A stretch of 64,000 bases of DNA from Minisyncoccota bacterium (GCA_041663185.1 JBAZQY010000001.1:117298-181297), one strand, 5' to 3'. Counted from the first letter of the stretch, positions 12,833 to 31,622 are shown. Notes: generated by a model not told the origin, from the letters alone. Program-made: numbers and translations.

Positions 12833-12838
12833 AAATAA

Positions 12839-12929
12839 CCAGCATATATAAAAATTTATGAGTAGGTGTGGGCGCGCCGGAGCCCGAAGGGCGTAGAGGG
12901 ATAAGCGAATAAATTTTTATATATACTGG
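12839..12929. repeat. Palindromic repeat element with conserved GC-rich core, copy 1 of 3
   Basis: ccagc-atatataaaaatttat-GAGTAGGTGTGGGCGCGCC...GGGATAAGCGAAT-ataaatttttatatat-actgg. Related copies are at 21805..21905 and 31511..31608. Confidence 0.8.
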
Positions 12930-12960
12930 CTATTTTTTGATTACCAAGAATTATTTTTAT

Positions 12961-13494
12961 TTATTTTTTACTCTGGTCAATAGTAATTTCCGAATCGGGA
13001 GCGATGTTCACGTCTGGTCTCAAATGTGAAATATGTTTACGTTGGACGATATAATCACCTAAAAATTTCTTAAAATCATCTATCCGAGCCTGTTCATCCA
13101 TTTCAGTAAAATGAGCAAGCGGTTTACTCTCAGGAGTATATTCATAATGCCCCCTTATTTCTCCATCTCGAAAAACTCGAATGTGGTATTGGTAATCAAA
13201 ATTTTCTAATTTACGCCAAGAGAGAACTTGTGATTTATCTGTCCAAGCCACGAAGTGGTTTCCAAAATTCCATTCATTATGTAAATGCTTTTCTAAATCT
13301 TTTAAATTTTTTCCAGGAGCAAGCCAGCCAATATGATAAGGCTGACGGCCCTTTTCATGCCAAGCTAAGTGCCATTTTAAAAAATGTTTTTGCAACCATG
13401 GAAACACTGGGTAAATATGCCGCCAGATACTTTTCTTAATTCTTTGGTTGAGTGTTAGTTTGATTATTTTATTCATAATAAATACTTTTTTCAA
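12961..13494 (-). CDS. Hypothetical protein
   Basis: 177-aa ORF with no recognisable motif. The likely start is the internal ATG (MNKIIKL). Confidence 0.4.
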   Translation of the reverse strand: MKKVFIMNKIIKLTLNQRIKKSIWRHIYPVFPWLQKHFLKWHLAWHEKGRQPYHIGWLAPGKNLKDLEKHLHNEWNFGNHFVAWTDKSQVLSWRKLENFDYQYHIRVFRDGEIRGHYEYTPESKPLAHFTEMDEQARIDDFKKFLGDYIVQRKHISHLRPDVNIAPDSEITIDQSKK

Positions 13495-13656
13495 TAATAC
13501 TTTTCGCTACGTAGCTTTCTAATTTATTCGACATTACCGTAAAAATTAATATATTGACGACAATACATACTGCGACAAACATCCAATATTTATTAAAAGT
13601 AAACTTCATGCTCTATATAATAACATTAAAAAAGAAAATTATTAAATAAAAAAATG

Positions 13657-13684
13657 TCGCCTCCTGGTGGGCGACATTAAATCT
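13657..13684. terminator. Terminator hairpin downstream of the DksA/TraR-like gene
   Basis: atgtcgcc-tcctggtg-ggcgacat is an 8-bp stem in an A/T context. Confidence 0.5.
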
Positions 13685-13707
13685 TAAAATCTTATTAACA
13701 TCCAGTT

Positions 13708-14130
13708 TCACTTCTGGTTAAGCTTGGCTTCAACGCTAAGCGTGGCATGCGGTACACTCTTCAGCCTTTCCTTGCAGATCAGCTTCCCGGTTACCCTGCA
13801 AATGCCATAGGTTTTATTCTCTATGCGCAATAAAGCGTTCCCGAGATTGTTGATGAACTTCTGCTGGCGTCCAGCCAGACGGCTGTTCTCTTCTTTGGAC
13901 ATGACCTGGTATCCCTCTTCAAGGATCTTGAATGTTGGCGAAGTGTCATTGGTTCCATGCTCTCCGCCGGGATCTTGGTATGCCTCCATCAGCAATTTCA
14001 GATCTTCATTGGCTGTTTCAAGTTTGCTCATAATAAGCTCCTTGAATTCCTCGAGTTCCTCGTCTGAGTACCTTGTTTTTGTTCTTGGCTCCTCTGCTGT
14101 GGCCACGCTGTGACCATTTAATTTTCCCAT
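13708..14130 (-). CDS. DksA/TraR-family C4-type zinc-finger protein (degenerate finger)
   Basis: Coiled-coil N-terminus and ...GICRVTGKLICKERLKSVPHATLS..., which resembles the DksA/TraR C-terminus. The gene sits in a ~50% GC island that contrasts with its ~30% GC surroundings. Confidence 0.55.
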   Translation of the reverse strand: MGKLNGHSVATAEEPRTKTRYSDEELEEFKELIMSKLETANEDLKLLMEAYQDPGGEHGTNDTSPTFKILEEGYQVMSKEENSRLAGRQQKFINNLGNALLRIENKTYGICRVTGKLICKERLKSVPHATLSVEAKLNQK

Positions 14131-14381
14131 TCTGTCTTGTGTTTTAAAGGTTAGTTATTTCAGTTCGTTTCTGGGGGGAAATTAAAAAAAAATATAATTA
14201 ATAATGAACTTTGGGCTTTTACTTTTGTGGTTATTATACACAAGAGATGATAATTGTCAATGCGGAGGCACTTGTGTTAGGACTTATCACCGACAAGCCC
14301 TGTGATGTTTTTTTTAATAATTCCATATTATCATAACGACGTATCTCGTGCGAATTTCAAAATTGTAAGAAAACAAAAAAT

Positions 14382-15239
14382 ATGTATAATTCAAGTATGA
14401 TAATATTGTCCTATATATTTTATTTTCTTGTAGCAACAATCGCTCCAATTCAACGTCGTTGGCTTTCAGTAAAAAATGAAGGTGGAAATAAAATCGATCT
14501 TTCTTTTAAGGTTACTCTCGTTTCTTCTTTATTAATTCTAATTCTTCCTTTATTTTCTCCTTTCGAATTACATGGTTCATGGTTAAAAATAACATTACTT
14601 TTAATTGCTTCCAGCGTTGGTGGAATGGGTTACTATATAAGCTATTTTACAGCACAAAGACACGTTGAAGCTGGAGTAACTTCTGTTCTTGGTAATACTT
14701 ATGTCCCTATTACTATTTTATTAAGTACTGTGTTTCTTGGAGAAGGACTTAAGGGATTGCAAATAATTGGGGTATTGCTTCTAATTACTGCAATGGTTAT
14801 TGTTTCAAAAAAACACAAGATAGGAAAAATGAAATATGATAAATATTTTTGGTTAATGATATTTAGCGGAATTTCACTATCAATACTTTTGGTCGCCAGT
14901 CGTGAATTAATGAAAATTACAGGATTTACAGCATCTCTTATACTAAGTTGGTGGGCTATATGTATAGGGCTTGGAATTCTTGCTTTCTTTTCAAAAGGAA
15001 AAACTACTTATACTAAAAAAGATCTGGTTATTACTGGATTTTTAAAATTTATTCAAGATCTTTCTTGGGGGATGCTTACTTTTTTCGTAGCCAATTTAAG
15101 TTTAGTCTCATCAATAACAACATTTAAAGTAGTTATCATGTTTATAGTTGCTGCAATTTTCTTAAAAGAGAAAGATGGAATTTGGAGAAAAATTTTTGGA
15201 AGTTTAATAGCCGTAATTGGTTTACTTTTGATGAGATAA
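14382..15239 (+). CDS. DMT-superfamily (EamA-like) permease
   Basis: 285 aa with ~10 predicted TM helices in a duplicated EamA-like arrangement. Confidence 0.6.
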   Translation: MYNSSMIILSYIFYFLVATIAPIQRRWLSVKNEGGNKIDLSFKVTLVSSLLILILPLFSPFELHGSWLKITLLLIASSVGGMGYYISYFTAQRHVEAGVTSVLGNTYVPITILLSTVFLGEGLKGLQIIGVLLLITAMVIVSKKHKIGKMKYDKYFWLMIFSGISLSILLVASRELMKITGFTASLILSWWAICIGLGILAFFSKGKTTYTKKDLVITGFLKFIQDLSWGMLTFFVANLSLVSSITTFKVVIMFIVAAIFLKEKDGIWRKIFGSLIAVIGLLLMR

Positions 15240-15258
15240 TTTAAATTTTTATTAATTG

Positions 15259-15345
15259 CGGATGGGGTGAGATTCGAACTCACGGAACCGGTTAGGGTTC
15301 GGCGGTTTAGTAAACCGCTGCCTTAAGCCTCTCGGCCACCCATCC
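15259..15345 (-). tRNA. Class II tRNA (Ser-like, long variable arm) with an apparent anticodon ACU (non-canonical)
   Basis: Cloverleaf on the minus strand: acceptor GGATGGG/CCCATCC, T-arm GTGAG-TTCGAAT-CTCAC, a ~19-nt variable arm, and anticodon arm GCGGT-TTACTAA-ACCGC. Confidence 0.6.
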
Positions 15346-15364
15346 CTAACTAGCTCATGTTACT

Positions 15365-16384
15365 TTAAATTTTAAATTTTTCCAAGTGTTTTGGGTTATT
15401 TGTTCCAACAATACTTAAATATCTTTTTACCTGCGTTTTAGAATTTATTCTAACATCCACCCCCTTAGTCAAAACACATTTTATATTAAGATCTTTTAAA
15501 GTATCCAAAACAAATTGCAGGAGAGGTATTGATCTATTGGTAAACGCAATTTTTTTATAAAAATATTTTTTTTTATTTACAGAATAAATATTTTTATAAA
15601 AACAACCATCTGTATCAATGAGTCCTCTTAAACAGGCAATTCTATATTTCTTATTATTGAGAATCCATTGTGGCACTTCAATTTGATTTTTAACTTTATT
15701 TCCAACTATCAAGCCGAGAGCCTTTAAATAATCAACTAGTTCTACCCTAGATACTTGGATTACTGCAACTGATTTTCTTATTGGGTCATTCAAATATGTA
15801 TAAATTGATGGTTTAATTTTAAATAATTGACATATTAAATCTGAAACAAATTTAATATATTTTTTATCTGTATTTCTATTTAAAGTTATTTTAACCATAT
15901 ACTTTGACAATCCACCATCTCCAAGCATTATTCCGATGAATTCCGCAAGATTCTTCGATTTCTTTATTTTGTATATAGACTTTCGAACATTTATAATTGG
16001 ATGACTACCAAAACGCCCTTTTGAATTCCACCACTTCTCCCAAGCAATTTTCCTTTTTTCTAAATTACCTCCTACAGTAGAGTTTTTTAAGACATTATTT
16101 CTTCCACCCTTACTACTAATAATTTTTAAATGTTCATTAAAAGATACAATTTTTTCTATTTCGGGAATTCTAACTTTGTATTGATGACTCAATCCCTTAA
16201 CTGTTTCAAAGGGTAATCGTGTTACTCCGCTTCTCCAATCACGCAAAGTTCTAGATGAAACACTTAATAATTTTGCAAAATCATCAAATTCTTTTTTAGA
16301 TTTATATATTAAATTTTGAACAAATTCAGTCTGTTCTTTTTTATTTTTAAAAACTATTCTTTTATATATAAACCTCTTATCCAT
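15365..16384 (-). mobile_element. Free-standing LAGLIDADG-family homing endonuclease-like ORF with an N-terminal HTH
   Basis: Two LAGLIDADG-like motifs are present (LAEFIGIMLGDGGL and LRGLIDTDGCF). The N-terminus ...LLSVSSRTLRDWRSG... is HTH-like. The ORF sits between two divergent tRNA genes. Confidence 0.65.
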
Positions 16385-16444
16385 TCTTCCATTATATACT
16401 TATGCTAGAAAAATCTCAATAATAATGATAGATTACAGATATAG

Positions 16445-16531
16445 GGAGCCGTGTCAGAGTGGTCTAACGTACCTCTTTGCTAAAGAGGCAGGGTGTAAAA
16501 GCCCTCACAGGTTCGAATCCTGTCGGCTCCG
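16445..16531 (+). tRNA. tRNA-Ser (anticodon GCU)
   Basis: Acceptor GGAGCCG/CGGCTCC, anticodon arm CCTCT-TTGCTAA-AGAGG, a long variable arm, and T-loop TTCGAAT. Confidence 0.8.
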
Positions 16532-16557
16532 CAATTGTTTATGCTATAATACACTAC

Positions 16558-17298
16558 ATGGATGAAATAGAAAAATTAAAAAAGGAAGTTGAGCGAGTAA
16601 AAAAAATCAGTGAAACAAAATCGGATATTATATCTATTACTGCTCATCAACTCCGCACATCACTATCGGCTCTTAAATGGATTTTAAAAATGTTTATCGA
16701 TGAAGATGTCGGTAAACTCAATAATGAACAAAATGAATTAATAAAAAAAGCATATAACAGTAACGAAAGAATGCTTCTGCTTGTGAATGATTTACTAACT
16801 CTCAATCATAGTGAAGATGCTTCCATTCCTTATAAATTTAAAAAGATAGATATCATTTATCTTATAGAGCAAACTCTATTTGAATTCTCCGGTGAAACAA
16901 ATAAGAAAGAAATTGAATTAATCTTTCTTAAGCCAGATATGCAAATACCACTCATTAACTGTGATGAGCAAATGATTCGTGTTGTTTTCCAAAATTTAAT
17001 TGAAAATGCTATTAAGTATAGTAATAAAGATGGGAAAATTTTCATCTCCGTCGGGCAAAAGGACAACAATGTTCAAATTTCTGTTCATGACACAGGTATT
17101 GGAATTAAAAATGAAGATAAGGAAAATATTTTCAAAAAATTCTTTAGATCACCAAATGCTATTGAGAAAGATGCAATCGGTTCAGGATTGGGATTATTCA
17201 CAACCAAAAATATTATTGAGAAGCATAATGGTAAAATCTGGTTTGAAAACGGCGAAGGAGGAGGAACAACATTTTTTGTTGTATTGCCTATTACTTAA
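16558..17298 (+). CDS. Sensor histidine kinase, cytoplasmic (HisKA + HATPase_c, no TM)
   Basis: H-box ITAHQLRTSLSAL. N, G1 and G2 boxes are present (NLIENAIKYS, HDTGIGI, GSGLGL). The listed ORF start at 16477 overlaps the tRNA, so the start was moved to MDEIEKL. Confidence 0.75.
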   Translation: MDEIEKLKKEVERVKKISETKSDIISITAHQLRTSLSALKWILKMFIDEDVGKLNNEQNELIKKAYNSNERMLLLVNDLLTLNHSEDASIPYKFKKIDIIYLIEQTLFEFSGETNKKEIELIFLKPDMQIPLINCDEQMIRVVFQNLIENAIKYSNKDGKIFISVGQKDNNVQISVHDTGIGIKNEDKENIFKKFFRSPNAIEKDAIGSGLGLFTTKNIIEKHNGKIWFENGEGGGTTFFVVLPIT

Positions 17299-17321
17299 CT
17301 AATATAGTATAATATCCTCGT

Positions 17322-17687
17322 ATGAAAAAAGTACTTATAATCGAAGACGACAGTTTCCTGCAAGGACTTGAGGCTGGCAAATTAAAAAAGGAAGGCTATG
17401 AGATAGTGACAGCTTCGACCGGTGAAGAAGCCATGAAGAAAATTACCGACCCTGAGATAAATATAATTCTCTTGGATTTAATTCTTCCGGGAATTGATGG
17501 CTTTGAAGTCCTTCAGAAAATCAGATCGACTGAGGCGTCAAAAAATATTCCAGTCATTGTCTTTTCAAACTTGTCTGAAGAAAAAGATATCAAAAAATCC
17601 AAAGAACTCGGAGCAACTGATTTTATGGTCAAATCAAATTTCACTCTAGATGAGCTCGTCGAACACGTCAAAAAAACTCTAAAATAA
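17322..17687 (+). CDS. Standalone response-regulator receiver domain
   Basis: KVLIIEDD...DLILPGIDGFEVL...K receiver signature, directly downstream of the kinase. Confidence 0.75.
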   Translation: MKKVLIIEDDSFLQGLEAGKLKKEGYEIVTASTGEEAMKKITDPEINIILLDLILPGIDGFEVLQKIRSTEASKNIPVIVFSNLSEEKDIKKSKELGATDFMVKSNFTLDELVEHVKKTLK

Positions 17688-17688
17688 A

Positions 17689-17712
17689 ATCCGCCTGATG
17701 GCGGTTTTTTAT
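17689..17712 (+). terminator. Intrinsic terminator
   Basis: ccgcc-tgat-ggcgg followed by tttttt. Confidence 0.6.
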
Positions 17713-17851
17713 TATATGTTATAATTTAAGAGTATGAAAAAAGAACTCAGCAAAAAACATGCGATAATTCTTCTTATTATTTTTATTGCTATTGGTGGAC
17801 TTATTTTATACAAAGAAGATCCCAGTCATAATAATTTTTCTCCCTTAGATT

Positions 17852-20064: not shown

Positions 20065-20079
20065 ATTATTTCAAAACAA

Positions 20080-21653: not shown

Positions 21654-21657
21654 ATTG

Positions 21658-21731
21658 TCCGCCTGCTACGATTCGAACGTAGGACCCTCGAGGTATAAGC
21701 TCGATGCTCTAACCAACTGAGCTACAGGCGG
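21658..21731 (-). tRNA. tRNA-Ile with anticodon UAU (AUA decoder)
   Basis: Acceptor CCGCCTG/CAGGCGG, D-arm GCTCAGTTGGTTAGAGC, anticodon arm TCGAG-CTTATAC-CTCGA, and T-arm CTACG-TTCGAAT-CGTAG. Confidence 0.75.
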
Positions 21732-21779
21732 ATTGGTTATAGAAATATATTACAGAAAAAACACTATATTTGCAAACTG

Positions 21780-21796
21780 CCCCGCCGAAGGCGGGG
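21780..21796. terminator. GC hairpin (terminator-like)
   Basis: ccccgcc-gaag-gcgggg followed by cagtttt. Confidence 0.5.
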
Positions 21797-21804
21797 CAGT
21801 TTTA

Positions 21805-21905
21805 GAAAACCGAGAATATTGAAAAATAAATGAGTGGGTGTGGGCGCGCGCCGAGCGAAGCGAGGTAGGGATAAGCGAGTTTATTTTTTAATATTCTCGG
21901 TTTTC
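21805..21905. repeat. Palindromic repeat element with conserved GC-rich core, copy 2 of 3
   Basis: gaaaaccgagaat-attgaaaaataaa-TGAGTGGGTGTGGGCGCGCGCCGAGCGAAGCGAGGTAGGGATAAGCGAGT-ttattttttaat-attctcggttttc. It is immediately 3' of ftsH. Confidence 0.8.
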
Positions 21906-21906
21906 T

Positions 21907-23823
21907 TTATATTGTGTCTTTAACTTTCGGAACTATCCCATTTGCAATGATAAGATCGTTGTATTCTTTTTGCTCCAGAGTTTCTACTTCAATTAATTTC
22001 TTTGCAATTACATCGAGAATATTTTTCTTCTCTAAGAGAATTCTTTTTGCTTCGGCAAGTGAATTATTCATTATTTTTGCAACTTCAGCATCAATGACTG
22101 AACTCATCTTCTCAGAATACTCTTTGTCGTCTACTCCTTGACCAAACATAACTCGTCCACCATCCCCTTCAAGAGCAATCGGGCCAATTTCATCACTCAT
22201 TCCCCAGCGAGTAACCATTGCACGAGCAAGATTTGTCGCCACCTGTAAATCATTCGATGGGCCTGTTGTAATATCTCCGAAAATCATCTCTTCGGCCACG
22301 TATCCGCCGAGCGACATGGTAATGTCATCAATAAATTCTTTTTTACTTTGTAATCGTCGCTCTTCAAGTGGAAGTTTGAGGGTATACCCGCCAGCCCTTC
22401 CGCGAGAAACAATTGAGACCTTGTGTACTGGATCTGCATATGGAAGCATCGAGGCAAGCAATGCATGCCCTGCTTCATGATAAGCTGTAATTTCTTTTTC
22501 TTTTTTGGAAAGTAAATGACTTTTTCGCTCTGGGCCCATCATCACTTTTTCAATCGAACGAATAAGGTCAAATTGAGCAACTTTTTTTCTATCTTCACGA
22601 GCGGCAAGTATTGCTCCTTCATTCATCAGTGAATACAAATCCGCACCCGAAAATCCTGGTGTGCGCTCAGCGATAACTTTCAAATCCACATCCTCAGCAA
22701 ACGGCTTTTTTCTAGAATGAATTCCGAGTATCTCTTCGCGATCTTTTCTATCTGGTAATTCAAGGACTACCCGGCGATCAAATCGTCCCGGGCGAAGAAG
22801 TGCTGGGTCAAGAACGTCTGACCTATTTGTTGCCGCCATAACAATAACTTTCTCATTCGGTTCAAAACCATCCATTTCAACTAGAATTTGGTTTAATGTT
22901 TGTTCACGCTCATCATTACCTCCTCCGACTCCAGTTCCTCGCACTCGACCGACAGCATCTATCTCATCAATAAAGACGATAGACGGCGCGGCTTTTTTAG
23001 CCATTTTGAATAAATCGCGGACGCGTGATGCCCCAACTCCGACAAACATTTCGACGAATTCACTTCCGGACAAATGGAAAAATGGCACACTGGCTTCCCC
23101 AGCAACAGCCCTGGCTAGTAATGTCTTCCCTGTCCCTGGCGCGCCAGTGAGTAACACTCCTTTGGGAATTCGTGCTCCGATATCCAAAAACTTTTTAGGG
23201 TTACGAAGGAAATCTACAATTTCTTTTAATTCTTCTTTGGCTTCTTTACTTCCGGCTACATCTTTGAAAGTAACTTTGTTATTTTTATCGTTAGGGTCAG
23301 TAATACGTGCTTTTGATTGACCAAAAGTAAATGCTTGCATGCCCTGACCTTTGACTTGGCGAGTTAGCATCCAGATAAAGAAAACAATTAACAAGACGGG
23401 AATTAGAAATGGCAAAATATTTAGTAACCAATATCCAAAACCAGATTCCGTTTTGATTTCAATCGGAGTTGCTGAGAGTTCCTCGGGGGTTACTCCATAA
23501 TTAAAAAGTGTTTCCGAAAGAGAACTCTCTACTTCCTTCTTGGCTTTACCTTTTGTCTCATCTTTGAAAATTACATTAACATCACTACCAGAGACTTCTA
23601 TGCTTGTAAGCGTCTCAGTTTTGATAGCATTGGCAACATCAGAAATAGTTATACTTTTGATATCTTCTGGTGATTTAGTTAGGAAGGTGTACAGCAAAGT
23701 AATCCCCATAAAGATAAATATCGCGATAGTGATCTGATTTATAATGTTTGGCTTCTTGGGCATTTGGGGTAAGCCTGATTTATTTTTCATTTTTGGATTT
23801 ATTTGGTTCATTGGATTTTTCAT
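21907..23823 (-). CDS. ftsH: ATP-dependent zinc metalloprotease FtsH
   Basis: N-terminal TM helices. AAA Walker A GAPGTGKT, the second region of homology, and the zinc motif HEAGHAL are present. Confidence 0.9.
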
Positions 23824-24422: not shown

Positions 24423-24428
24423 AATACT

Positions 24429-24819
24429 GGGGATGATCGGCTTCGACAAAATGAATCCTCTTATATATGCATGTAAAGTACCCAGGAATCTTTTAAAACT
24501 TCTTGGAAAAGACTAAGTGCAAACAAAGTCGCTTCAGTTCTTTCACCTTACTCTTTTGGGTTAGGTCAAAGAGCTCTTGCTTACGCCTAAACGGCTCCGG
24601 CAAGTGTTCATTCTTTTGACATCCGATATAAAGAGTGGGCATAATTTATCGGGTTACGATTTTACAAATGTCCGATGTAGAATTCGACAATTTAGGACTC
24701 GGTGTTTATCTTTCCTGTATGTCCTCTAGGATAAACATTTAAACCCAAGTGGACATAACAAACATGTAGAATTATCTAAGAGTTCCTTTTGCACGCGGGT
24801 TCGATTCCCGCCATCTCCA
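24429..24819 (+). ncRNA. ssrA: tmRNA (ssrA)
   Basis: 5' end GGGGATGATCGGCTTCGAC. The 3' T-arm GCGGGTTCGATTCCCGC plus acceptor CATCTCC pairs with the 5' end. An internal reading frame gca aac aaa ... gct ctt gct tac gcc taa encodes a tag ending ...RALAYA. Confidence 0.8.
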
Positions 24820-24865
24820 CAATTAAAAAACGTCCAGCAATGGGCGTTTTTTAATTGTGGAGATG
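24812..24865. terminator. 21-nt perfect inverted repeat incorporating the tmRNA 3' terminus
   Basis: catctccacaattaaaaaacg-tccagcaatggg-cgttttttaattgtggagatg. Confidence 0.55.
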
Positions 24866-25227
24866 AGAAAGCCAACTGCTTGGCTTTCGGCGGGAAGCGA
24901 AAGACTTTTCGTTATTTGCGAAGCAAATCGAAAAGTACCTGGCGATGTAATCGCCGATAAGTGTACTCACGGTCCCGCTATTTCTTGCGTGGAAATCAAA
25001 AGGTATACTGTCCTCGTAGAGGAAGATACTCAGACATCTCCACAACATTTTAAACCTTATTTTGTAAGGGTTATTTTACTTGACTTTTTTGTCAATCTAT
25101 GCTATCATTCTACTGGGTCAGTTCTTTGATATTTGGTTTTAAATTAAATTTGTTGGATTGTCTTTGCTCCCCTTTCTATGGAATAAAGACAATTCAATAA
25201 ATTTTTAAACACAAAAAACCAGAAAAA

Positions 25228-25725: not shown

Positions 25726-26116
25726 GCAATCCGCTTTTGCAGAAAAGGAAAATCCCTTTTCATTATGCAGAGCGGATTTTTCTTTTTATTCAATTCTCGT
25801 TGTAATACTAATAAGAAATTAACAAGAAATCACCTTTTTTGCTCTATTTTAGGAGTTTATTTAGATTAATGGTAAAATTACAAAAAATACTAAAACTATG
25901 AAAATACTAAAATATCTTTATTATTTTTGTGAACTTGGAAAAGATCCGTCGATATTGCGCACCAAATGACTGTCCTCATTTATTATGTCGAAAACGAAAA
26001 AATATTCATAAAAATGAAGAATGGTAAATACTTATAAAAAAGGGAGTTGGCATTAGTCAATCTCCCTTTTAAATTTTCTCATAAATTATTTATATCTTTA
26101 ACTTTTTCGTTTTTAT

Positions 26117-26416
26117 ATGCTACTCTTAAAGAAACTTAAAAAAATGGGAACACTGGAACCACTTAGTAGACGCACTCGCCTACTCTGGATGTATAATACT
26201 CTTATTCATCCACACCGTATCAAAATAATAATCGTATGTTTTGATTCTCGTGATAAAGCACTATATCCCTGTCATTTATCTCGTGACCAGGATGTTGAGA
26301 AAAAAATAAACAATATTTCAATCGAAACTCCAAATGTAATCATCATTGAGGTTATTGATTTGGATAAAGAACCGTTTGATGTATTCGATATGTTCGAGCT
26401 TGAAAATTTTTACTAG
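26117..26416 (+). CDS. Hypothetical protein
   Basis: 99-aa ORF followed by a bidirectional hairpin at ~26443-26480. Confidence 0.35.
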   Translation: MLLLKKLKKMGTLEPLSRRTRLLWMYNTLIHPHRIKIIIVCFDSRDKALYPCHLSRDQDVEKKINNISIETPNVIIIEVIDLDKEPFDVFDMFELENFY

Positions 26417-26510
26417 TAAAAATTTTCAAGCTCTTTTTTTATTACCAAAATTAAAAATTCCCACACCGAGTGTAGGAATTTTTAATTAAATAAATCTTTG
26501 TATTAAACAA

Positions 26511-26756
26511 TTACATAGGATTACTTGTTGGGGCACTTGTAGGCATTGCTTTAGCTTCACAGTGCTTACAATCTTTGCAGTGAGTAGCAACCAAAAAGAT
26601 TGCGGACAAACCAACTAGAATGTAAATGATTTTAGAGATTAGAGCATCTTGTCCTCCAAAAATCATTCCTACATCCCAACCAAAGAGACCCACAAGAAGC
26701 CAATTAAGACCTCCGATGATAACTAGAACAAATGCGATACCATGTATAACTTTCAT
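26511..26756 (-). CDS. DUF378-family small membrane protein
   Basis: GGLNWLLVGLFGWD motif and two TM helices, typical of DUF378. Confidence 0.55.
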   Translation of the reverse strand: MKVIHGIAFVLVIIGGLNWLLVGLFGWDVGMIFGGQDALISKIIYILVGLSAIFLVATHCKDCKHCEAKAMPTSAPTSNPM

Positions 26757-26864
26757 TTTTTTATTGTTAATTAAAAATTAATAATTCGACTCTTAGAACT
26801 TATATGCAGATATTATACCAAATATAAAAATCTTGGATAGCAATTTTTATGCTAAAATGGCATT

Positions 26865-28310
26865 ATGACACCACAACCAAAACTTACAGTTTCAGGATAT
26901 CGCGGGATTTGGGGAGAGAGTTTAACTCCTTTGATTATAGAGAATTATGTTTCTGCTTTTATTCAATTTGTGAAAGAAGATATAAATGATAAGCCGACAA
27001 TTCTTCTCGGGCGTGATGGTCGCGAAAGTGGCCCAGATATTAAAAAAATAGTGACAAGAACACTCCAGAAACTCGGTGTGAATTTCATTGATGGGGATAT
27101 TCTCCCAACTCCGACCGTTCTTTTCGCCGTCCGAAAACACAAATACGATAGCGCAATAATCATTACCGCTAGTCACAATCCGAGAGAATATAATGGACTA
27201 AAATTTGTAACCAACAAAGCACTTTTCACGGACGAAAAAGAAGTGGCAAAAATAAAAGAAAATTATGAAAAAATCACCAATAAAAATAAACTCCAACAGA
27301 ATATTCTTTCTGAAAGCACACATAAAACCCTACTGGGTTTTTGCTCTGCTCGGCCCGTCGGCCTGCGCAAGTCTTTCATAAAGAACATTCTGTCTTCGTT
27401 TATTAAAAAAATCAATTTCCCCAAAGAACACGCGGACCAAATTTTAAAACATATCAACGTAGAAAAAATTCGAGCTCATAAATTCAAAGTGGCTGTCGAT
27501 ATGATAAACGCTTCGGCTTGTGTCCTTGATCCATATTTATTTGAGCAACTTGGAGTCGAACTTATTCCTCTTAATAATATTCCTGATGGTAAATTTGCCC
27601 ATAAGCCAGAACCACTCCGAGAGAATTTAGGAGATATCGCGCAACTTGTAAAAGAAAAAAATTGCAACCTTGGCTTTGCTCACGACCCCGATGCTGACCG
27701 TCTGATTGTTATAAATGAAAAAGGTGAGGCCATTTCAGAAGAATATACTCTTGCCCTCGGGGTTGAAGCAATTCTTTCTAAAAACCATAACAATATCGCT
27801 GTTGTAAATATGTCCACCTCTCAAATGAATAGAGATATTGCCGAAAAATATGGTGGCAAATGTATCCGGACAAAAGTCGGTGAAGCAAACGTCGTTGCTG
27901 GTATTTTAGAGAACAATGCAATAATTGGTGGTGAAGGTGGTGGAGGAATTATTTACCCCACTATTAATATGGCTCGCGATAGTTTTGTTAGTTTGGCTTT
28001 AATTTTGGAATTATTGGCAGAAAGAGATCAAACTGTCACCGAATGTTTAGAAACACTTCCAAAATATGAAATGTGCAAAGACAAAGTGTCTGTTGTGGGT
28101 AGTTTAGAAGAAATGTATCTGAAGATGAAAAATCATTTCAAAAACGGAACTATAAATGAGCTTGATGGCCTTCGCCTCGACTTCCCTGATAACTCTTGGA
28201 TTCACTTACGACCCTCAAATACTGAGCCAATAGTTCGTCTTTATGGCGAAGCCCAGACAAAAGAAAGAATTACCGAATTATTCAAAGAAGCCCATGCTGT
28301 ACTTGCCTAA
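26865..28310 (+). CDS. Phosphoglucomutase/phosphomannomutase-family enzyme (GlmM/ManB-like)
   Basis: Active-site loop ITASHNP. The metal-binding loop FAHDPDADR is present. An unusual GC-rich in-frame segment lies at ~27316-27400. Confidence 0.75.
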   Translation: MTPQPKLTVSGYRGIWGESLTPLIIENYVSAFIQFVKEDINDKPTILLGRDGRESGPDIKKIVTRTLQKLGVNFIDGDILPTPTVLFAVRKHKYDSAIIITASHNPREYNGLKFVTNKALFTDEKEVAKIKENYEKITNKNKLQQNILSESTHKTLLGFCSARPVGLRKSFIKNILSSFIKKINFPKEHADQILKHINVEKIRAHKFKVAVDMINASACVLDPYLFEQLGVELIPLNNIPDGKFAHKPEPLRENLGDIAQLVKEKNCNLGFAHDPDADRLIVINEKGEAISEEYTLALGVEAILSKNHNNIAVVNMSTSQMNRDIAEKYGGKCIRTKVGEANVVAGILENNAIIGGEGGGGIIYPTINMARDSFVSLALILELLAERDQTVTECLETLPKYEMCKDKVSVVGSLEEMYLKMKNHFKNGTINELDGLRLDFPDNSWIHLRPSNTEPIVRLYGEAQTKERITELFKEAHAVLA

Positions 28311-28373
28311 AGATAGTCTTTATGCTAATATTCCCATTAGGTAGGTAATCTATTTTTCTATCGGACAATAAAA

Positions 28374-28877
28374 TTGAGAGAAAGAATAAACAATCAAATA
28401 CGAGCTTCTGAGGTTCGAGTAATCTCAAACGAAGGAGTTAATCTTGGTGTTTTAAGTATAAAAGAGGCCCAAGCACAAGCTGATTCGCAAGGACTTGATT
28501 TGATTGAAATTTCTCCCAATACTAATCCACCGATAGTCAAAATAGCAAATTTTGGTAAGTATCAATACGAACAAAATAAGAAACAGAAAAAAGCTAAAGC
28601 TGGAGCAAAAACAACCGAAACCAAAGCTGTTCAAATAAAAATCGGCACCGGCGACAATGACCTGGCTCTCAAGGCTAGAAAAGCATCAGAATGGCTCAAA
28701 GAAGGACATCGTATAAAAGTGGAATTATTTTTGTCAGGACGTTCCAAATATATGCCAGATGCATTCTTAAAAGAGCGGTTAGATCGTATTCTTCATCTTA
28801 TTACCGAAAATTATAAAATTGCCGAAAATTATAAAAAAGGTCCAAAAGGTCCAACAATTACAATTGAGAAGCAGTAG
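28374..28877 (+). CDS. infC: Translation initiation factor IF-3
   Basis: Conserved IF3 N- and C-domains (…INNQIRASEVRVI…, …LFLSGRSKYM…). The track uses a TTG start; an in-frame ATA at 28368 is an alternative, since IF3 genes typically use atypical start codons. Confidence 0.8.
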   Translation: MRERINNQIRASEVRVISNEGVNLGVLSIKEAQAQADSQGLDLIEISPNTNPPIVKIANFGKYQYEQNKKQKKAKAGAKTTETKAVQIKIGTGDNDLALKARKASEWLKEGHRIKVELFLSGRSKYMPDAFLKERLDRILHLITENYKIAENYKKGPKGPTITIEKQ

Positions 28878-28953
28878 AAAATAGCAAGCAGTAAGTAGAA
28901 AGGAAATTAAAAAAATAAATACCTTACTACATACTACCTACTACATACTACTT
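28871..28953. repeat. GTAG-heptad imperfect hairpin (REP-like family) between infC and rpmI
   Basis: Left arm gcaGTAGaaaaTAGcaagcaGTAAGTAGaaagg and right arm ccttaCTACataCTACctaCTACataCTACtt. Confidence 0.6.
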
Positions 28954-28960
28954 ATTATAT

Positions 28961-29158
28961 ATGTCTATTAAAACAAATAAATCTTTAACAAAGCGTTTAA
29001 AAATTACTAAAAATGGTAAGATATTGTCTCGTGCACCAGGATTCAATCATTTTAATGCGAAACAATCTAGAAAAAAACAATTAGGCGGTAAAAAAACAGC
29101 AAATTTTGCTATTTCAAATAGAAACCGACGTACATATCTGGCTACGTCAAAAATATAA
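28961..29158 (+). CDS. rpmI: 50S ribosomal protein L35
   Basis: 65 aa, basic, in the infC-rpmI-rplT arrangement. Confidence 0.8.
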   Translation: MSIKTNKSLTKRLKITKNGKILSRAPGFNHFNAKQSRKKQLGGKKTANFAISNRNRRTYLATSKI

Positions 29159-29185
29159 AAATTAATAATTTAATAATTAATCAAC

Positions 29186-29530
29186 ATGACAAGAGTTAAA
29201 AGAGGAACAATGAAAAATAAGCGCCGAAAGAATATCCTTGCCCAAACAAAAGGATTCCGTTTCGGACGCAGTACAAAAAAGATACAAGCTAAAGATGCAT
29301 TATTACACGCAGGGAATTATTCTTTTGCCCATCGCAAAGACAAAAAAGCAGATGCGAGAAGTTTGTGGACTACTAGAATTAACGCCGCAATCAGACCATT
29401 TGGAATGTCATACAGTAAATTCATTGATGGTTTAAAAAAGAAAAATATTATGGTTGACCGTAAAATTTTATCTGATATTGCTCAAAATAACCCAGAAGTG
29501 TTCGAAAGAATTGTAAAAAATATCGCATAA
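29186..29530 (+). CDS. rplT: 50S ribosomal protein L20
   Basis: MTRVKRG...KRRKNILAQTKGFRFGRS... conserved L20 N-terminus. Confidence 0.85.
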   Translation: MTRVKRGTMKNKRRKNILAQTKGFRFGRSTKKIQAKDALLHAGNYSFAHRKDKKADARSLWTTRINAAIRPFGMSYSKFIDGLKKKNIMVDRKILSDIAQNNPEVFERIVKNIA

Positions 29531-29558
29531 AAAAACCCTCCTCTCGGAGGGTTTTTTT
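29529..29558. terminator. Bidirectional intrinsic terminator
   Basis: aaaaaaa-ccctcc-tctc-ggaggg-ttttttt. Confidence 0.65.
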
Positions 29559-29561
29559 ATT

Positions 29562-30938
29562 TTAGCATTTTAGGATAACTGTCTCATTGTTTGTTGGGGT
29601 ATAAGCATCAACCCCAAGATTATCTTTCAACTTCTGAGCCAGAAACATTGCCGATTTCGGTTCTCCCATTACAACAAAAACTTTTTTTAAGGTATGAGCT
29701 GTATTTTCTACAAATTCAACTAAATGATCAGAGTCTTTGTGCCCCGAGTAGCCACTAATCATCTCTACGTGGGCGCGAACGATAGTCTCTTCACCAAAAA
29801 TGTGGACTTTTTTAGCTCCATCATAAATAAGTCGCCCGAGTGTCCCAATCGACTGATAACCAATCAATAGGATAGTATTATTCTTATCAGGTAGATAATT
29901 CTTTTCATGGTGCATTATACGACCACCTTTTGACATACCACTACCAGCAATAATTATTTTAGGTGGGGGTACTTTTAAAATTGCTTTCGATTCTTCTGTC
30001 TCCATTGTTTCTATTAAGCCTGGAAAATCAAAAAGTTTATCACCTGTTGCAATTATATCGCGGGCTGTTTTATTAAAATACTTATCATATTTCAAATAAA
30101 TATCTGTGAGTTTTATTGAAAGTGGTGAATCAAGAAATATCGGCAATTTAGACATTTCATCATTCTCATTAATAAAAGAATTCATTTCATAAAGTAATTC
30201 TTGTGTTCGCTCAAGGGAAAAAGTCGGTATCATAAGTACTCCCTTGCGAGTGTAATTTTCTCTTATTATTTCTTCAAGCTTCTTTTTACGCAAATCACGA
30301 TGTTCGTGATTGCGGTCTCCATAACATGATTCCATTATTAAATAATCCACGTTCTCAATTGGTTCATTATCCGGTAATAATGGCGATGGAGAATTACCAA
30401 GGTCCCCTGTGAAAACTATTTTCTTACCATTATAAATTATTTCCAGCATTCCAGAGCCAAGAATATGCCCAGAATTTTTGAAAGAAAATTGGAAGCCGTG
30501 GTCAATATTTATCTTCTGCCCATACTCAAATGTCTCCCATAGGTCCATAGCTTTCTTAATATTCTCTGGTGAATAAATTTTTGCCAAATCATATTCTGTA
30601 TCTTTCGATAAAATGTGGGCCGTGTCGGCCAACATCACTTCCGTAATTTCTTTTGTTGGAACAACTGAAATTATTCGCCCATTAAAACCTTCACTGATAA
30701 GCTTTGGAATACGCCCAATATGATCGACATGTCCATGGGTTATAAAAAGAATATCAATAGTCGAAGCATCATATGGAAACTTGTCCCAGTTTAGGTCGTC
30801 GGCGATTTTTTCTCCCTGAATTAATCCACAATCAATCAAAAATTTCTTGTCATTTCCCTCCAATAAAAAATTTGCTCCGGTAACAGTCCCTGCTCCAGAA
30901 CAAAAAGTCACTTTTAGATTTGTCTCATTTGTCATCAA
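29562..30938 (-). CDS. MBL-fold beta-CASP family ribonuclease-like hydrolase
   Basis: HxHxDH metallo-beta-lactamase motif (THGHVDHIG) plus a C-terminal beta-CASP-like region with conserved His. Confidence 0.65.
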   Translation of the reverse strand: MMTNETNLKVTFCSGAGTVTGANFLLEGNDKKFLIDCGLIQGEKIADDLNWDKFPYDASTIDILFITHGHVDHIGRIPKLISEGFNGRIISVVPTKEITEVMLADTAHILSKDTEYDLAKIYSPENIKKAMDLWETFEYGQKINIDHGFQFSFKNSGHILGSGMLEIIYNGKKIVFTGDLGNSPSPLLPDNEPIENVDYLIMESCYGDRNHEHRDLRKKKLEEIIRENYTRKGVLMIPTFSLERTQELLYEMNSFINENDEMSKLPIFLDSPLSIKLTDIYLKYDKYFNKTARDIIATGDKLFDFPGLIETMETEESKAILKVPPPKIIIAGSGMSKGGRIMHHEKNYLPDKNNTILLIGYQSIGTLGRLIYDGAKKVHIFGEETIVRAHVEMISGYSGHKDSDHLVEFVENTAHTLKKVFVVMGEPKSAMFLAQKLKDNLGVDAYTPTNNETVILKC

Positions 30939-30960
30939 ATCAATTATACCTTATATAGTT

Positions 30961-31075
30961 GAAAAATGGAATTTAAATAGCTCTTCTCGAAATACGCACA
31001 TAAAATTCTGCTGAATTTTTGCTATGCTCGGGCCGTCGCCCTGCGCAATGTATTTCTCAAAGACTATTTTAATTC
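30961..31075 (+). other. Diverged copy (about 80% nt identity) of an internal phosphomutase-gene segment (27301-27400); pseudogene fragment or mobile in-frame element
   Basis: Nucleotide alignment includes a GC-rich hairpin with a compensatory change (gggc...gccc versus ggcc...ggcc). The same-frame translation LNFCYARAVALRNVF resembles LGFCSARPVGLRKSF and is preceded by a stop. Confidence 0.5.
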
Positions 31076-31084
31076 CATTTTTCA

Positions 31085-31206
31085 ATAATCTTATAAAAAG
31101 ATAAACAAAATAGTCTTATCAGAGGGGCTTTTGAGCGCGACGGCGTGAAAACTGATCAAATTTCTAGTAAGAAATTTGATGTACCCTCTGGGAAGAGCTA
31201 TTTTGT
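31085..31206. repeat. ~120-nt nested imperfect palindrome
   Basis: Outer perfect 19-bp arms aaaaagataaacaaaatag/ctattttgtttatcttttt. Inner stems are cagaggg/ccctctg and atcaaatttc-tagtaa-gaaatttgat, with an asymmetric GC-rich bulge. Confidence 0.55.
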
Positions 31207-31510
31207 TTATCTTTTTTGTTTTCCTAATAAAAAATCCTCCCAAAAATGGAAGAATTTCTTATTAGGACTATCGAAGTTGTATTACCGTAGCACTAAGACT
31301 AGGTGGGATTACGGATAATAGGGATTTGTTAACGTAAAATTGTTTACAGTTCCTTATTAAAACTCTATATCCCCTAAAAAATTGTTCTAGGTAACACATT
31401 TCAAATAATCCTATCTTGAGTATACCCTCCGAAAATAATTACACAAGCGTTTTTACAAAAATAACACACTTTTGACAGCCCTTCAAATTGAGTTTTGAAT
31501 AAAGATATCG

Positions 31511-31608
31511 AAAAAACCCAATATAAAAATTTTATGAGTAGGTGTGGGCGCGCGCCGAGCGAAGCGAGGTAGGGATAAGCGAATAAAATTTTTATATTGG
31601 GCTTTTTT
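31511..31608. repeat. Palindromic repeat element with conserved GC-rich core, copy 3 of 3
   Basis: aaaaaaccca-atataaaaattttat-GAGTAGGTGTGGGCGCGCGCCGAGCGAAGCGAGGTAGGGATAAGCGAAT-aaaatttttatat-tgggctttttt. It is 3' of the CYTH gene. Confidence 0.8.
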
Positions 31609-31622
31609 ATAAGAAAAACTAT

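Follow-up and report, generated by a model that had tools for sequence, protein, structure and literature searches.

What kind of element is repeated where three palindromic segments with a common GC-rich core lie at gene 3' ends, within a 64,000-nt stretch of DNA (the window) from a Minisyncoccota bacterium? We found that these segments belong to an apparently undescribed family of hairpin repeats from tiny bacteria of the candidate phyla radiation (CPR). The explanation that we favor, and in which we place about even confidence, is a non-autonomous mobile repeat of the REP or Rickettsia palindromic element (RPE) kind, read in single-stranded form, some copies of which double as terminators.

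The element is a hairpin repeat of ~70-110 nt with a nearly invariant GC-rich tip. Its AT-rich stem of 20-30 bp, P1, varies in sequence while its pairing is kept. The tip on P1 is a nearly invariant, strand-asymmetric three-way junction, which comprises, in order, a closing triplet (GAG or UCG, pairing with CGA), UA, the small G·U-containing hairpin Pa (GGUGU-GGGC-GCGCC), the variable hairpin P2, which is rich in tandem G·A mismatches and spans 18-40 nt between the two conserved halves of the core, and the single-stranded AGGGAUAAG. The palindrome GGCGCG(CG)CC, previously singled out within the core, is indeed present, but the variation among relatives fits the overlapping G·U hairpin GGUGU/GCGCC instead.

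The window contains three copies, all on the + strand, in agreement with the single orientation originally noted. The limits given here are those of the full hairpins; they include the outer stems and extend a few bases beyond the earlier ones. A covariance model built from relatives matched the copies with 73-87 bits (E 1e-19 to 1e-23) and, with filters off, revealed no fourth copy in the window, all other matches being plain hairpins. The core, GGTGTGGGCGCG...GGGATAAGCGA, lies at 12865-12908, 21837-21878 and 31541-31582, and GGGATAAGCGA has exactly three occurrences against 0.57 expected by chance. Folding of the + strand of the three copies gives -32 to -44 kcal/mol, with z from -3.8 to -7.5.

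Copy 1 sits between two genes that converge on it: it overlaps the stop codon of ORF 11642-12832 (+) by 2 nt and faces the 3' end of ORF 12961-13494 (-). Its P1 has 27 Watson-Crick pairs out of 29 and two A·C mismatches.
12831-12937, + strand: copy 1, full hairpin (87.4 bits)
12831-12859, + strand: P1 5' arm of 29 nt, pairing with 12909-12937
12860-12908, + strand: core module
12860-12864, + strand: closing triplet GAG and UA
12865-12878, + strand: hairpin Pa, GGTGTGGGCGCGCC
12878-12896, + strand: P2 of the CGGAGC...GCGTAG subtype
12897, + strand: single A
12898-12908, + strand: GGGATAAG and closing CGA
12909-12937, + strand: P1 3' arm, then TTTTTT

Copy 2 ends 1 nt before the stop codon of ftsH (21907-23823, -), and an orthologue of this copy adjoins ftsH in two relatives (L111 and L002). 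On its other side lie a separate GC-rich hairpin (21774-21802) and a tRNA-Ile gene (21657-21731, -).
21804-21906, + strand: copy 2, full hairpin (73 bits)
21832-21878, + strand: core module
21832-21836, + strand: GAGTG
21837-21849, + strand: GGTGTGGGCGCGC
21850-21866, + strand: P2, GCCGAGCGAAGCGAGGT, with GCGAAGC within
21867, + strand: single A
21868-21878, + strand: GGGATAAGCGA

The 3' end of the CYTH gene (31623-32180, -) is followed after 15 nt by copy 3, which has an A-run next to one edge and a T-run next to the opposite edge.
31510-31608, + strand: copy 3, full hairpin (81.8 bits)
31536-31582, + strand: core module
31536-31540, + strand: GAGTA
31541-31553, + strand: GGTGTGGGCGCGC
31554-31570, + strand: P2
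31571, + strand: single A
31572-31582, + strand: GGGATAAGCGA

Copy 1 had been described as differing from the others by substitutions that retain length; its core is in fact 2 nt longer, and its P2 is of the CGGAGCCCGAAGGGCGTAG subtype as opposed to GCCGAGCGAAGCGAGGT in copies 2 and 3. With regard to the neighboring genes, Pfam confirmed the FtsH and CYTH labels but not "ATP-grasp", as the search with ORF 11642-12832 gave no match.

An exact-pattern scan of 185,579 species genomes identified 51 loci, all from Parcubacteria, Paceibacterota, Nomurabacteria or CPR MAGs with generic labels; the richest MAG has at least 13 copies. The covariance model found 60 copies in the genome loci and, among the matches listed, at least 87 in 80 metagenome loci. 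Together these make at least 147 further copies, spread over more than 130 contigs of Parcubacteria/Paceibacterota. The viral sequences searched gave no match. At the copies, Rfam 15, whose families include ribozymes, riboswitches, attC and STAXI, returned no gathering-score match and only chance-level hairpin matches at E up to 10, and a literature search for the repeat family yielded no match. The expectation of an uncharacterised family with further copies in related genomes was thus borne out.

Could the element be a structured RNA useful to its host? The G-rich-strand three-way junction would then bind a conserved host factor or protect or process 3' ends; RNase III could release the module from the long AU-rich stem, and the copies would have spread by duplication and been kept by selection locus by locus. 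We regard this as a tentative alternative with a limited chance of being correct. In its favor, the core is nearly invariant over ~150 copies from many genomes while the stems and P2 covary. Covariation supports the structure: P1 is paired at 93-95%, 15 of 15 pairs changed on both sides, the covariation score of P1 reaches 0.74 and 0.55, compared with 0.17 and 0.13 after shuffling, and RNAalifold recovers P1 unaided. Compensated changes also appear in the closing triplet (UCG/CGA, GGC/GCC and UCC/GGA). In Pa, 12 of 17 variant cells of the metagenome set are pair-preserving one-sided changes (U·G to C-G, U·G to U-A), and the same kinds of change recur among the genome-locus copies. The variation examined held no double compensatory change in Pa, which counts against an RNA. 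Template-switch correction of quasi-palindromes could also mimic covariation. P1 stems stay paired even in copies with a decayed core, so that stem maintenance is independent of the core.

The strand asymmetry of the element suits an RNA as well as a mobile repeat read in single-stranded form, given that the G·U pairs and the purine-purine loops with tandem G·A work on the G-rich strand only. Mismatches in P1 are G·U in 70 cases and A·C in 32 (132 unique copies, p = 2e-4), an excess which shared ancestry of the copies may inflate; the bias persists, at 12:2, where host genes run the other way. The extra 38-nt hairpin inserted at the junction in L008 is a modular addition that points in the same direction.

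With regard to genomic position, intergenic copies occupy otherwise tiny spacers, mostly at gene 3' ends, and the location noted for the three window copies is therefore the usual one of the family. Among 48 copies with two near neighbors (-- 22, +- 12, ++ 6, -+ 8), 40 face at least one gene 3' end, and the distance from core to ORF end is 30-50 nt, about the length of the stem. Certain positions are conserved, namely after ftsH, upstream of a beta-CASP RNase gene, and within tgt and uvrB. The preference for 3' ends, the conserved positions and the T-runs at a third to a half of the intergenic copies would all suit a structured RNA. Its orientation, however, does not follow transcription: of 28 copies between co-directional genes, 22 have the G-rich strand in antisense, in-gene copies run both ways, and opposite orientations occur at one site (L007 and L037), as with the UvrB copy of L078, which is inverted relative to other UvrB copies. 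No conserved promoter was found to accompany the element, and the lack of an Rfam family match and the many orthologous sites without the element also weigh against an RNA.

About one fifth of the copies are inside ORFs, where no terminator could have pre-existed. The stop-free UCG subtype lies in frame, in either orientation, within housekeeping proteins, among them UvrA, UvrB, Tgt, MurB, CysRS and ArgRS; further hosts of in-frame copies are an M1 aminopeptidase, a PMT_2 glycosyltransferase, a ComF-like protein and RNase HII. UCG accounts for 21 of 25 in-gene copies, and GAG for 86 of 105 intergenic copies. In-frame copies inside essential genes are difficult to reconcile with a structured RNA, as a processing site would destroy the mRNA.

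A function independent of orientation, the occurrence within genes as well as between them and the invariance of the core in all genomes would be compatible with a DNA-level site for a conserved host protein involved in supercoiling, the nucleoid or replication, recognized as duplex or extruded cruciform, with transcription and mobility being secondary; roles of this kind have been suggested for REP/BIME. The G-rich strand also shows a mild bias with respect to GC skew, tending to the C-rich strand (39:23), and a part in DNA supercoiling has been suggested for REPs (PMC3733652). We nevertheless consider such a site improbable: P2, unless extruded, is too variable in length (18-40 nt) and sequence to fit a duplex site, duplex recognition does not require the strand asymmetry of G·U and G·A, and many orthologous sites lack the element.

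Comparison of orthologous sites revealed which unit is gained and lost between relatives. Where the element is missing, the spacer measures -1 to 67 nt. In L020, stop and start codons overlap as TAATG at the position of a 117-nt insert in L012; in L019, the spacer is 8 nt at a site that carries the element in L005; and the MurB of L047, without the insert, is ~38 aa shorter. None of these three element-free sites has a hairpin, so the copy-specific outer stem comes and goes with the core. The spacers and the shorter MurB show that the insertion unit is the whole hairpin and not a core placed in a terminator loop. The outer stems of paralogous copies (L007a, L007b and L012) are homologous and differ by compensated changes; in two copies 1 kb apart, ~88 nt are identical and the outer stems differ by two compensated changes. 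Insertion polymorphism between relatives exists. Mobility is further favored by P2 subtypes common to 4-5 genomes and to non-orthologous sites, by opposite orientations at one and the same site and by decayed copies at orthologous sites. Four junctions were compared with their empty counterparts and showed neither a target-site duplication nor a conserved target motif.

As for terminators, at least six T in 10 nt are found at 17-50% of intergenic copies, depending on context, and at 4% of in-gene copies; in convergent contexts, this holds on both sides in 50-67%. The ~50-nt loop of the element is outside the model of a simple terminator scanner. The other earlier idea, a module added to terminators that acts as a structured RNA or binds a protein, stands as an alternative; a T-run accompanies just 17-50% of intergenic copies. 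The window also contains two core-less perfect palindromes with P1-like arms, at 11598-11629 (GCATGAAAATTTTTAATTAAAAATTTTCATGC) and at 26399-26430 (CTTGAAAATTTTTACTAGTAAAAATTTTCAAG, then a T-run), which partly favor the terminator-loop idea, but their kinship to the family is not established. The proposal that a mobile ~50-nt GC-rich core enters the apical loops of pre-existing AT-rich terminators, the stems being host terminators, draws on these palindromes, on the differing outer stems and on the frequent A- and T-run flanks, but is very unlikely, as it is contradicted at the sites examined by empty sites without a hairpin, by complete 20-30 bp stems in genes where terminators are impossible, by the mutual homology of paralogous outer stems and by the scarcity of in-gene T-runs.

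In the mobile-repeat reading, which we prefer, the element would be copied as a complete hairpin, and its core would be invariant because a trans-acting machinery reads the folded, single-stranded G-rich strand. The form read is more likely single-stranded DNA, with an RNA intermediate being possible. Copies would survive where harm is small, in gene-end spacers and protein surface loops. Between co-directional genes, selection may favor the orientation that leaves the C-rich, poorly folding strand in the mRNA. A hairpin whose stem is followed by a T-run could also be a (bidirectional) terminator, as a side effect or by co-option.

Several observations count against this mobile-repeat reading, including the lack of a target-site duplication or target motif at the junctions compared and the pairing of stems whose core has decayed. 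Five orthologous in-gene copies that were not used in finding the locus are either intact (three, with 1-3 substitutions) or fully decayed (two); decayed copies at orthologous sites include those in the Tgt of L046 and the UvrB of L048. This pattern resembles the outcome of purifying selection on the locus, or of gene conversion, more than that of selfish DNA decaying neutrally, and would suit a structured RNA. Furthermore, a conserved middle with variable ends is the reverse of MITEs and REPINs.

RPEs offer a close parallel: they are palindromic repeats of ~100-150 nt in a reduced genome, with several families per genome. They occur in spacers and, unusually often, in frame in unrelated housekeeping genes, adding a peptide segment (PMC10969869), and their listed hosts include uvrB, dnaE and truB (PMC3733652). 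Similar read-through insertion is predicted here from the ORFs of at least 10 protein families, which run across the element without a stop, and from the insert-free MurB of L047. Neither system has an established mobilising mechanism. Unlike in RPEs, both orientations of the element occur at the same protein site, and the host phylum differs (Paceibacteria here). We know of no RPEs with an invariant, strand-asymmetric three-way-junction center and variable arms. Given the confinement of the element to CPR genomes, homology to RPE-1 to RPE-10 is unlikely.

REPs are located mostly between unidirectional and convergent ORFs, near 3' ends, and also within uvrA, uvrB and tRNA-synthetase genes, and are thought to be moved by RAYTs (PMC3733652). 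The element resembles them in these locations and in sometimes supplying or overlapping stop codons, and resembles REPINs in its hairpins of ~100 nt. GTAG-tagged REPs are short imperfect palindromes with an unpaired GTAG (or CGTC) tetranucleotide at one end. A possible counterpart in the element is a G-T-A-G directly 5' of a small imperfect hairpin (GUAG and GGUGU/GCGCC) in ~90% of copies; here G21 never varies and G18, T19 and A20 hardly do, the variants being GCAG, GTGG, CTAG, ATAG and CCAG. Yet the first G of this motif is base-paired to the closing C, and Pa has just 4-6 bp. REPs are 20-40 nt long, as opposed to 70-110 nt here, and the element is present in tens of copies per genome, not hundreds. 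A REPIN consists of two inverted REPs and a variable spacer, whereas the element has one asymmetric core amid variable arms.

MITEs and terminator-like repeats (Correia, ERIC, BOX, RUP and SPRITE) are likewise small and non-autonomous, form stable hairpins in transcripts and often lie at gene ends, and some of them serve as terminators or as sites of processing (PMC10969869). Whereas MITEs share constant terminal inverted repeats with a parent insertion sequence and have target-site duplications, the outermost stem of the element differs at every locus, no duplication is seen at the junctions compared, and no insertion sequence was identified as a parent with matching ends. IS200/IS605-derived elements have two subterminal hairpins, no terminal inverted repeats, a fixed 5' target tetranucleotide and a lagging-strand-template bias. 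The core of the element has two hairpins (Pa and P2) and is enclosed in a long inverted repeat, the bases 5' of the core vary (TAC, TAT, TCT, AAT), and the 39:23 bias is in the unexpected direction if the G-rich strand is active.

The leading candidate for the machinery, through a weak link, is a RAYT-like Y1 HUH transposase in the same genomes, encoded in the window by a single gene, as in REP/RAYT systems.
61059-61790, - strand: Y1 HUH transposase homologue, RAYT/IS200-like, 243 aa, putative trans-acting partner only
Its product matches Pfam PF01797 (35 bits against a cut-off of 23) and the NCBIfam REP-associated tyrosine transposase at 35.7 bits, below the curated RAYT cut-off of 80. No transposase was found to be linked to the element: RAYTs are usually flanked by their cognate repeat, an arrangement called a REPtron (PMC5581495, PMC3733652), whereas none of the four Y1 genes examined (window, L035, L030 and L143) is flanked by the hairpin element, other, genome-specific palindromes taking its place. 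These different flanks leave the link between Y1 and the element unproven, and their variation between genomes, with a constant element core, is unexpected if one enzyme reads both. In the window, the gene is flanked by the palindrome CTATAGGAAGTCSGACTTCCTATAG at 61032-61058 and at 61814-61844, and contains it once more at ~61583-61600. The Y1 family has more than 7,400 homologues. The same genomes hold other hairpin-repeat families.

Re-reading of all three places in the window bore out the three same-strand copies of the original prediction. Each core, GGTGTGGGCGCG...GGGATAAGCGA, is bracketed by a long AT-rich inverted repeat, and GGGATAAGCGA occurs exactly 3 times in the 64 kb, against 0.57 expected.

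12865-12908, + strand, core of copy 1 (sequence reading)
12831-12937, + strand, complete hairpin of copy 1
21837-21878, + strand, core of copy 2 (sequence reading)
21804-21906, + strand, complete hairpin of copy 2
31541-31582, + strand, core of copy 3 (sequence reading)
31510-31608, + strand, complete hairpin of copy 3

The predicted position at gene 3' ends was likewise confirmed: the start of copy 1 overlaps the stop codon of the upstream + strand gene, copy 2 ends 1 base from the ftsH stop codon, and copy 3 ends 15 nt from the CYTH gene. The + strand fold of the three copies is stabler than that of shuffled sequence (z -3.8 to -7.5). They score 73-87 bits with a covariance model built from relatives, which, with filters off, found no fourth copy in the window. 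At gathering thresholds, Rfam returned only the tmRNA and three tRNAs from the whole window, with nothing relevant at the copies, and at E up to 10 it gave only chance hairpin matches (copy 2; 30900-31640). Full-text literature searches yielded neither an account of the element nor a mention of its sequence, and nothing relevant on CPR/Parcubacteria palindromic elements, MITEs, RNA motifs or the literal core sequence; the family is thus apparently uncharacterised, as had been claimed.

Exact-pattern and model scans revealed further copies in related genomes. The exact-pattern scan, with one genome per species, gave 51 loci, all of them in Parcubacteria, Paceibacterota or Nomurabacteria MAGs (some with generic CPR labels), and a single MAG gave at least 13 copies. 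The covariance model found 60 copies in these 51 loci, 6 of which have a diverged core. A looser pattern gave at least 115 metagenome loci, and the first 80 of these, on which the model was run, contained 87 copies. The exact pattern was not found in viral contigs, so the element is not phage-borne. The closest fetched relatives of the window share 76-84% DNA identity with it, and an orthologous copy adjoining ftsH is present among them. The core is essentially identical throughout this class-level lineage. Paceibacteria keep at least one family of ~100-nt hairpin repeats, and probably several.

Alignment of the copies revealed one common layout, with a median total length of 103 nt: the outer stem P1, a closing triplet, UA, the hairpin Pa, the variable hairpin P2, an A and the segment J, which is an invariant GGGAUAAG. 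P1 comprises 20-30 bp (mean 22 by strict count), and its sequence varies from copy to copy with pairing kept (93% paired in the genome set, 95.5% in the metagenome set). Changes on both sides were observed in all 15 modelled P1 pairs, and covariation reached 0.74 and 0.55, against 0.17 and 0.13 in shuffled controls and at most 0.24 with slid partners. The covariation envisaged in the original prediction was found in part: RNAalifold recovered P1 unaided, P1 and P2 covary, and Pa is without double compensatory change in the metagenome set.

The closing triplet occurs as UCG/CGA, with three Watson-Crick pairs, or as GAG/CGA, with one G-C pair and tandem G·A, and copies are assigned to a UCG or a GAG subtype by its 5' half; the rare variants GGC/GCC and UCC/GGA are fully compensated. 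Pa follows the UA as GGUGU-GGGC-GCGCC and contains two G·U pairs. In the metagenome set its variation is rare, despite three Pa pairs left unconstrained by the search pattern; 12 of the 17 variant cells are one-sided and pair-preserving (U·G to C-G, U·G to U-A, G-C to G·U), and no double compensatory change was found in that set. Pa is a plausible hairpin that falls short of proof. P2 differs between copies in both sequence and length (13-40 nt), with clear covariation (CCGAAUCC/GGAUUCGG, CUCCGACC/GGUCGGAG, AAAUUUGC/GCAAAUUU), and recurrently exhibits tandem G·A or 3x3 GNA/GNA loops and C-GAA-G tips. In some copies P1 is extended at its base by a GAA/GAA or GGA/GGA loop and another helix. In one of the numbered relative loci, L008, the copy (3871-3960, - strand) has a GC-rich hairpin of 38 nt added between UA and Pa, resulting in a four-way junction. 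This copy occupies the entire adk-map spacer of a secY-adk-map cluster, antisense to the genes.

Comparison of flanking ORFs across loci identified orthologous gene pairs with and without the element, which establishes the insertion polymorphism that had been proposed as a check. A 117-nt insert in L012 corresponds to an overlapping TAATG stop/start in L020, L005 carries the element where L019 has 8 nt, and the remaining empty spacers measure 3-67 nt. MurB contains ~38 extra residues in L024 and L028, which are absent from L047. These comparisons indicate that the indel unit is the whole hairpin, including the outer stem that had been regarded as copy-specific. Two copies located 1 kb apart in L007 are identical over ~88 nt and show two differences further out, each compensated on the opposite arm; the outer motif recurs in a third copy, which lies on a different contig of that MAG. 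The outer stems of paralogous copies are related. Subtypes of P2, among them GCAAGUUAAUACUUGC and GCGGAACGAAGUGGAGC, were found in 4-5 genomes, including at non-orthologous sites, as in a repeat that proliferates in sub-families. In one spacer the element is oriented one way in L007 and the other way in L037, with similar arms, and UvrB of L078 carries it in sense at a site where other UvrBs have an antisense copy. Such flips would follow if the two arms recombined, or if a different copy took the place of the first. The spacers occupied by the repeats are otherwise 0-60 nt long.

With regard to genomic context, the neighbour strands relative to the element, for copies with two near neighbours, are -- in 22 cases, +- in 12, ++ in 6 and -+ in 8, so that 40 of the 48 copies face at least one gene 3' end. 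Of 28 copies between co-directional neighbours, 22 have the G-rich strand antisense to transcription (two-sided binomial p ~0.004, with orthologous sites among them not independent). The G-rich strand more often coincides with the strand that is locally C-rich (39:23), and both element orientations are common at operon ends. A T-run follows the stem in 17-50% of intergenic copies, depending on context, compared with 4% of in-gene copies, and at least half of the convergent copies have T-runs on both sides. A terminator role is plausible for some copies; as T-runs occur in only part of them, it cannot be the general rationale for the element. Ordinary short GC-stem terminators are also present in the window.

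Approximately a fifth of the copies lie within long ORFs, with the reading frame open throughout. The hosts identified by Pfam are UvrA, CysRS, ArgRS, a PMT_2 glycosyltransferase, an M1 aminopeptidase, RNase HII and a ComF-like phosphoribosyltransferase; UvrB, Tgt and MurB were named from their sequences. In Xth of L018, an apparent host, the element probably lies 5' of the true start codon. The predicted peptide is NRRxGRA...GISD in sense and NRLSL...RAHTYDF in antisense, and ~35-40 residues would be added to UvrA, UvrB, Tgt, MurB and the tRNA synthetases. The UCG subtype accounts for 21 of the 25 in-gene copies and the GAG subtype, whose xTGAGTAGG blocks two of three forward frames, for 86 of the 105 intergenic ones. 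A forward frame is open in 80% of in-gene and 25% of intergenic copies. The same phase is open in both orientations in only 52% versus 24%, which is suggestive of flip tolerance of in-gene copies. The Tgt and UvrB inserts occupy the same protein site across many genomes. Among orthologous in-gene copies that were not the reason for fetching their locus, 3 are intact, with 1-3 core substitutions, and 2 have decayed beyond recognition with the stem still paired. Intron-like excision was rejected, as ORFs are open through the AT-rich arms in all in-gene copies.

The covariation of P1 and P2 alone does not prove function, because template switching at quasi-palindromes could maintain the pairing of stems even in the absence of selection. 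A better argument for a single-strand reading is that all G·U pairs and purine-purine loops are on the G-rich strand, so that the complement would carry A·C and pyrimidine-pyrimidine mismatches. P1 mismatches in 132 unique copies comprise 70 G·U and 32 A·C (p = 2e-4), under a scoring scheme that treats the two alike and with an excess that shared ancestry may inflate. The bias is 12:2 where both neighbour genes run opposite to the element, a context for which coding- or leading-strand deamination would give a bias of the other sign; mutational strand bias is thus unlikely to be the source of the G·U excess. We favour, at about an even chance, a mobile repeat whose core is read as a folded single-stranded G-rich form by trans-acting machinery, for which a Y1 transposase would be the leading candidate. 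Terminator activity would then be a by-product of the mobile hairpin. A structured RNA useful to the host is the main rival and could account for the conservation at locus level and the RNA-like modularity, but it is difficult to reconcile with the free orientation, the antisense bias of the G-rich strand, the frequent empty sites and the apparent translation through the element in genes, and we consider it unlikely. A protein site in duplex DNA fits less well beside the one-strand pattern and is improbable. Insertion of the core into terminator-hairpin loops, as in the original prediction, is very improbable, as no terminator hairpin is present at the empty sites and the claim is contradicted at every site examined.

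With regard to the machinery of the favoured mobile-repeat reading, tblastn was run with IS200 TnpA and E. coli RAYT sequences. The best match, to MurA, was spurious; through weaker matches, genuine Y1 HUH transposase homologues were identified in L030/L153, L143, L035 and the window.

61059-61790, - strand, Y1 HUH transposase homologue (RAYT/IS200-like), Pfam PF01797 above cut-off
61032-61058 and 61814-61844, palindrome flanking the window Y1 gene, CTATAGGAAGTCSGACTTCCTATAG / TATAGGAAGTCSGACTTCCTATA, with a third copy in frame in the gene at ~61583-61600
L035, palindrome flanking Y1, GCATAGGTCWGACCTATGC
L030, palindrome flanking Y1, CGACTAGGTCTTGCCTAGTCG
L143, palindrome flanking Y1, TCTACAGGCAAGACCTGTAGA

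The best NCBIfam model for the window Y1 is 'REP-associated tyrosine transposase', with a score below cut-off. The family comprises more than 7,400 homologues, mostly with one or two contigs per 90% cluster. All four Y1 genes have a short palindrome on both sides, different in each genome, and the element was not found as a flank of any of the four. As RAYT genes are usually flanked by their own repeats (PMC5581495, PMC3733652), the flanking palindromes are the cognate repeats by this criterion and the element is not. The palindromes change between genomes, whereas the element core does not. Y1 is therefore a candidate for moving the element, but an unlinked one. Hairpins with GGAAGTCSGACTTCC and ATAT-rich lower stems are dispersed in L002, L056, L091, L115, L151, L152 and L157.

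Like REPs and Rickettsia palindromic elements, the element, a non-autonomous hairpin, multiplies within its lineage, fills gene-end spacers and is tolerated in frame in protein loops. GTAG-tagged REPs have GTAG directly 5' of a small imperfect hairpin, and the element core likewise has G-U-A-G. REPs are known in uvrA, uvrB and tRNA-synthetase genes, and between unidirectional and convergent genes, near 3' ends (PMC3733652). In contrast to a REPIN, which is a doublet with the Y1 gene flanked by the repeat, the element is neither a doublet nor a Y1 flank; its variable ends, with no target duplication seen, also set it apart from MITEs. What is distinctive is an invariant strand-asymmetric three-way junction amid variable arms, kept across a whole class of CPR bacteria. 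Inspection argued against a hammerhead (core CUGAGUA, not CUGANGA) and a K-turn (3-nt bulge absent; tandem G·A replaced by Watson-Crick pairs in the UCG subtype). Integron attC has its conserved boxes at the ends, whereas the conserved part of the element is central, and GTAG is the sole likeness to RfaH ops. The loop E/helix IV region of 5S rRNA has GUAGUGUGGG- and GAGAGUAGGGA-like strings in common with it but gave no Rfam match.

A more speculative proposal, which we hold only tentatively, is that the three-way junction goes beyond a transposase handle. It might be a class-wide Paceibacteria nucleic-acid module with a host role, for instance an insulator that depends on orientation, or a 3'-end module, recognised by a conserved host protein, or the signature of a new propagation, in which the repeat would be copied as a complete folded hairpin via RNA or single-stranded DNA. 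If true, the element would be built for translation either way round and able to live in essential genes of the smallest known bacterial genomes. The genomes of CPR bacteria are among the smallest and most densely packed known and are thought to be poor in repetitive DNA. Alongside Rickettsia, the family offers another, independent case for studying the in-frame entry of palindromic repeats into proteins and the agents of their movement, and it comes with a specific enzyme candidate (the Y1 protein) and a folded substrate that is already defined for testing. The covariance model lets annotators flag inserts that distort CPR gene calls and protein alignments.

We also identified other long-hairpin elements in the window.

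30960-31086, element X, in the 570-nt gap upstream of copy 3
31093-31216, element Y, in tandem with X, upstream of copy 3

Both exhibit arms of 33-36 bp and three-way-junction folds, each with its own GC-rich core unlike that of the element. Their families recur in many Paceibacteria loci (blastn), partly at the same places, and the two may be related to each other. An X-like copy at ~27300-27400 lies in frame in the ORF 26865-28310 (+), a phosphoglucomutase/phosphomannomutase-family gene, with the insert between Pfam domains I and II (peptide ..NILSESTHKTLLGFCSARPVGLRKSFIKNIL..); this is a second repeat family entering proteins in frame. Two perfect AT-only core-less palindromes with P1-like arms, GCATGAAAATTTTTAATTAAAAATTTTCATGC at 11598-11629 and CTTGAAAATTTTTACTAGTAAAAATTTTCAAG, followed by a T-run, at 26399-26430, could be excision footprints, precursors or unrelated terminators. 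The non-coding stretch 31219-31490 shows 75-83% identity in L095, L142, L036 and L023, has a terminator-like hairpin on the - strand (~31235-31253) and gave no Rfam match; it could be a small RNA or a leader. Taken together, these features show that hairpin repeats are general in these genomes. A beta-CASP/metallo-beta-lactamase RNase gene (29562-30938, -) lies downstream of that stretch. A GC-rich hairpin with A and T runs beside it (21774-21802) lies between copy 2 and a tRNA-Ile (21657-21731, -) with the anticodon TAT (UAU), which is uncommon in bacteria. The tmRNA gene is located at 24429-24822 (+; Rfam, 119.9 bits), with an ARAGORN-predicted tag peptide ANKVASVLSPYSFGLGQRALAYA.
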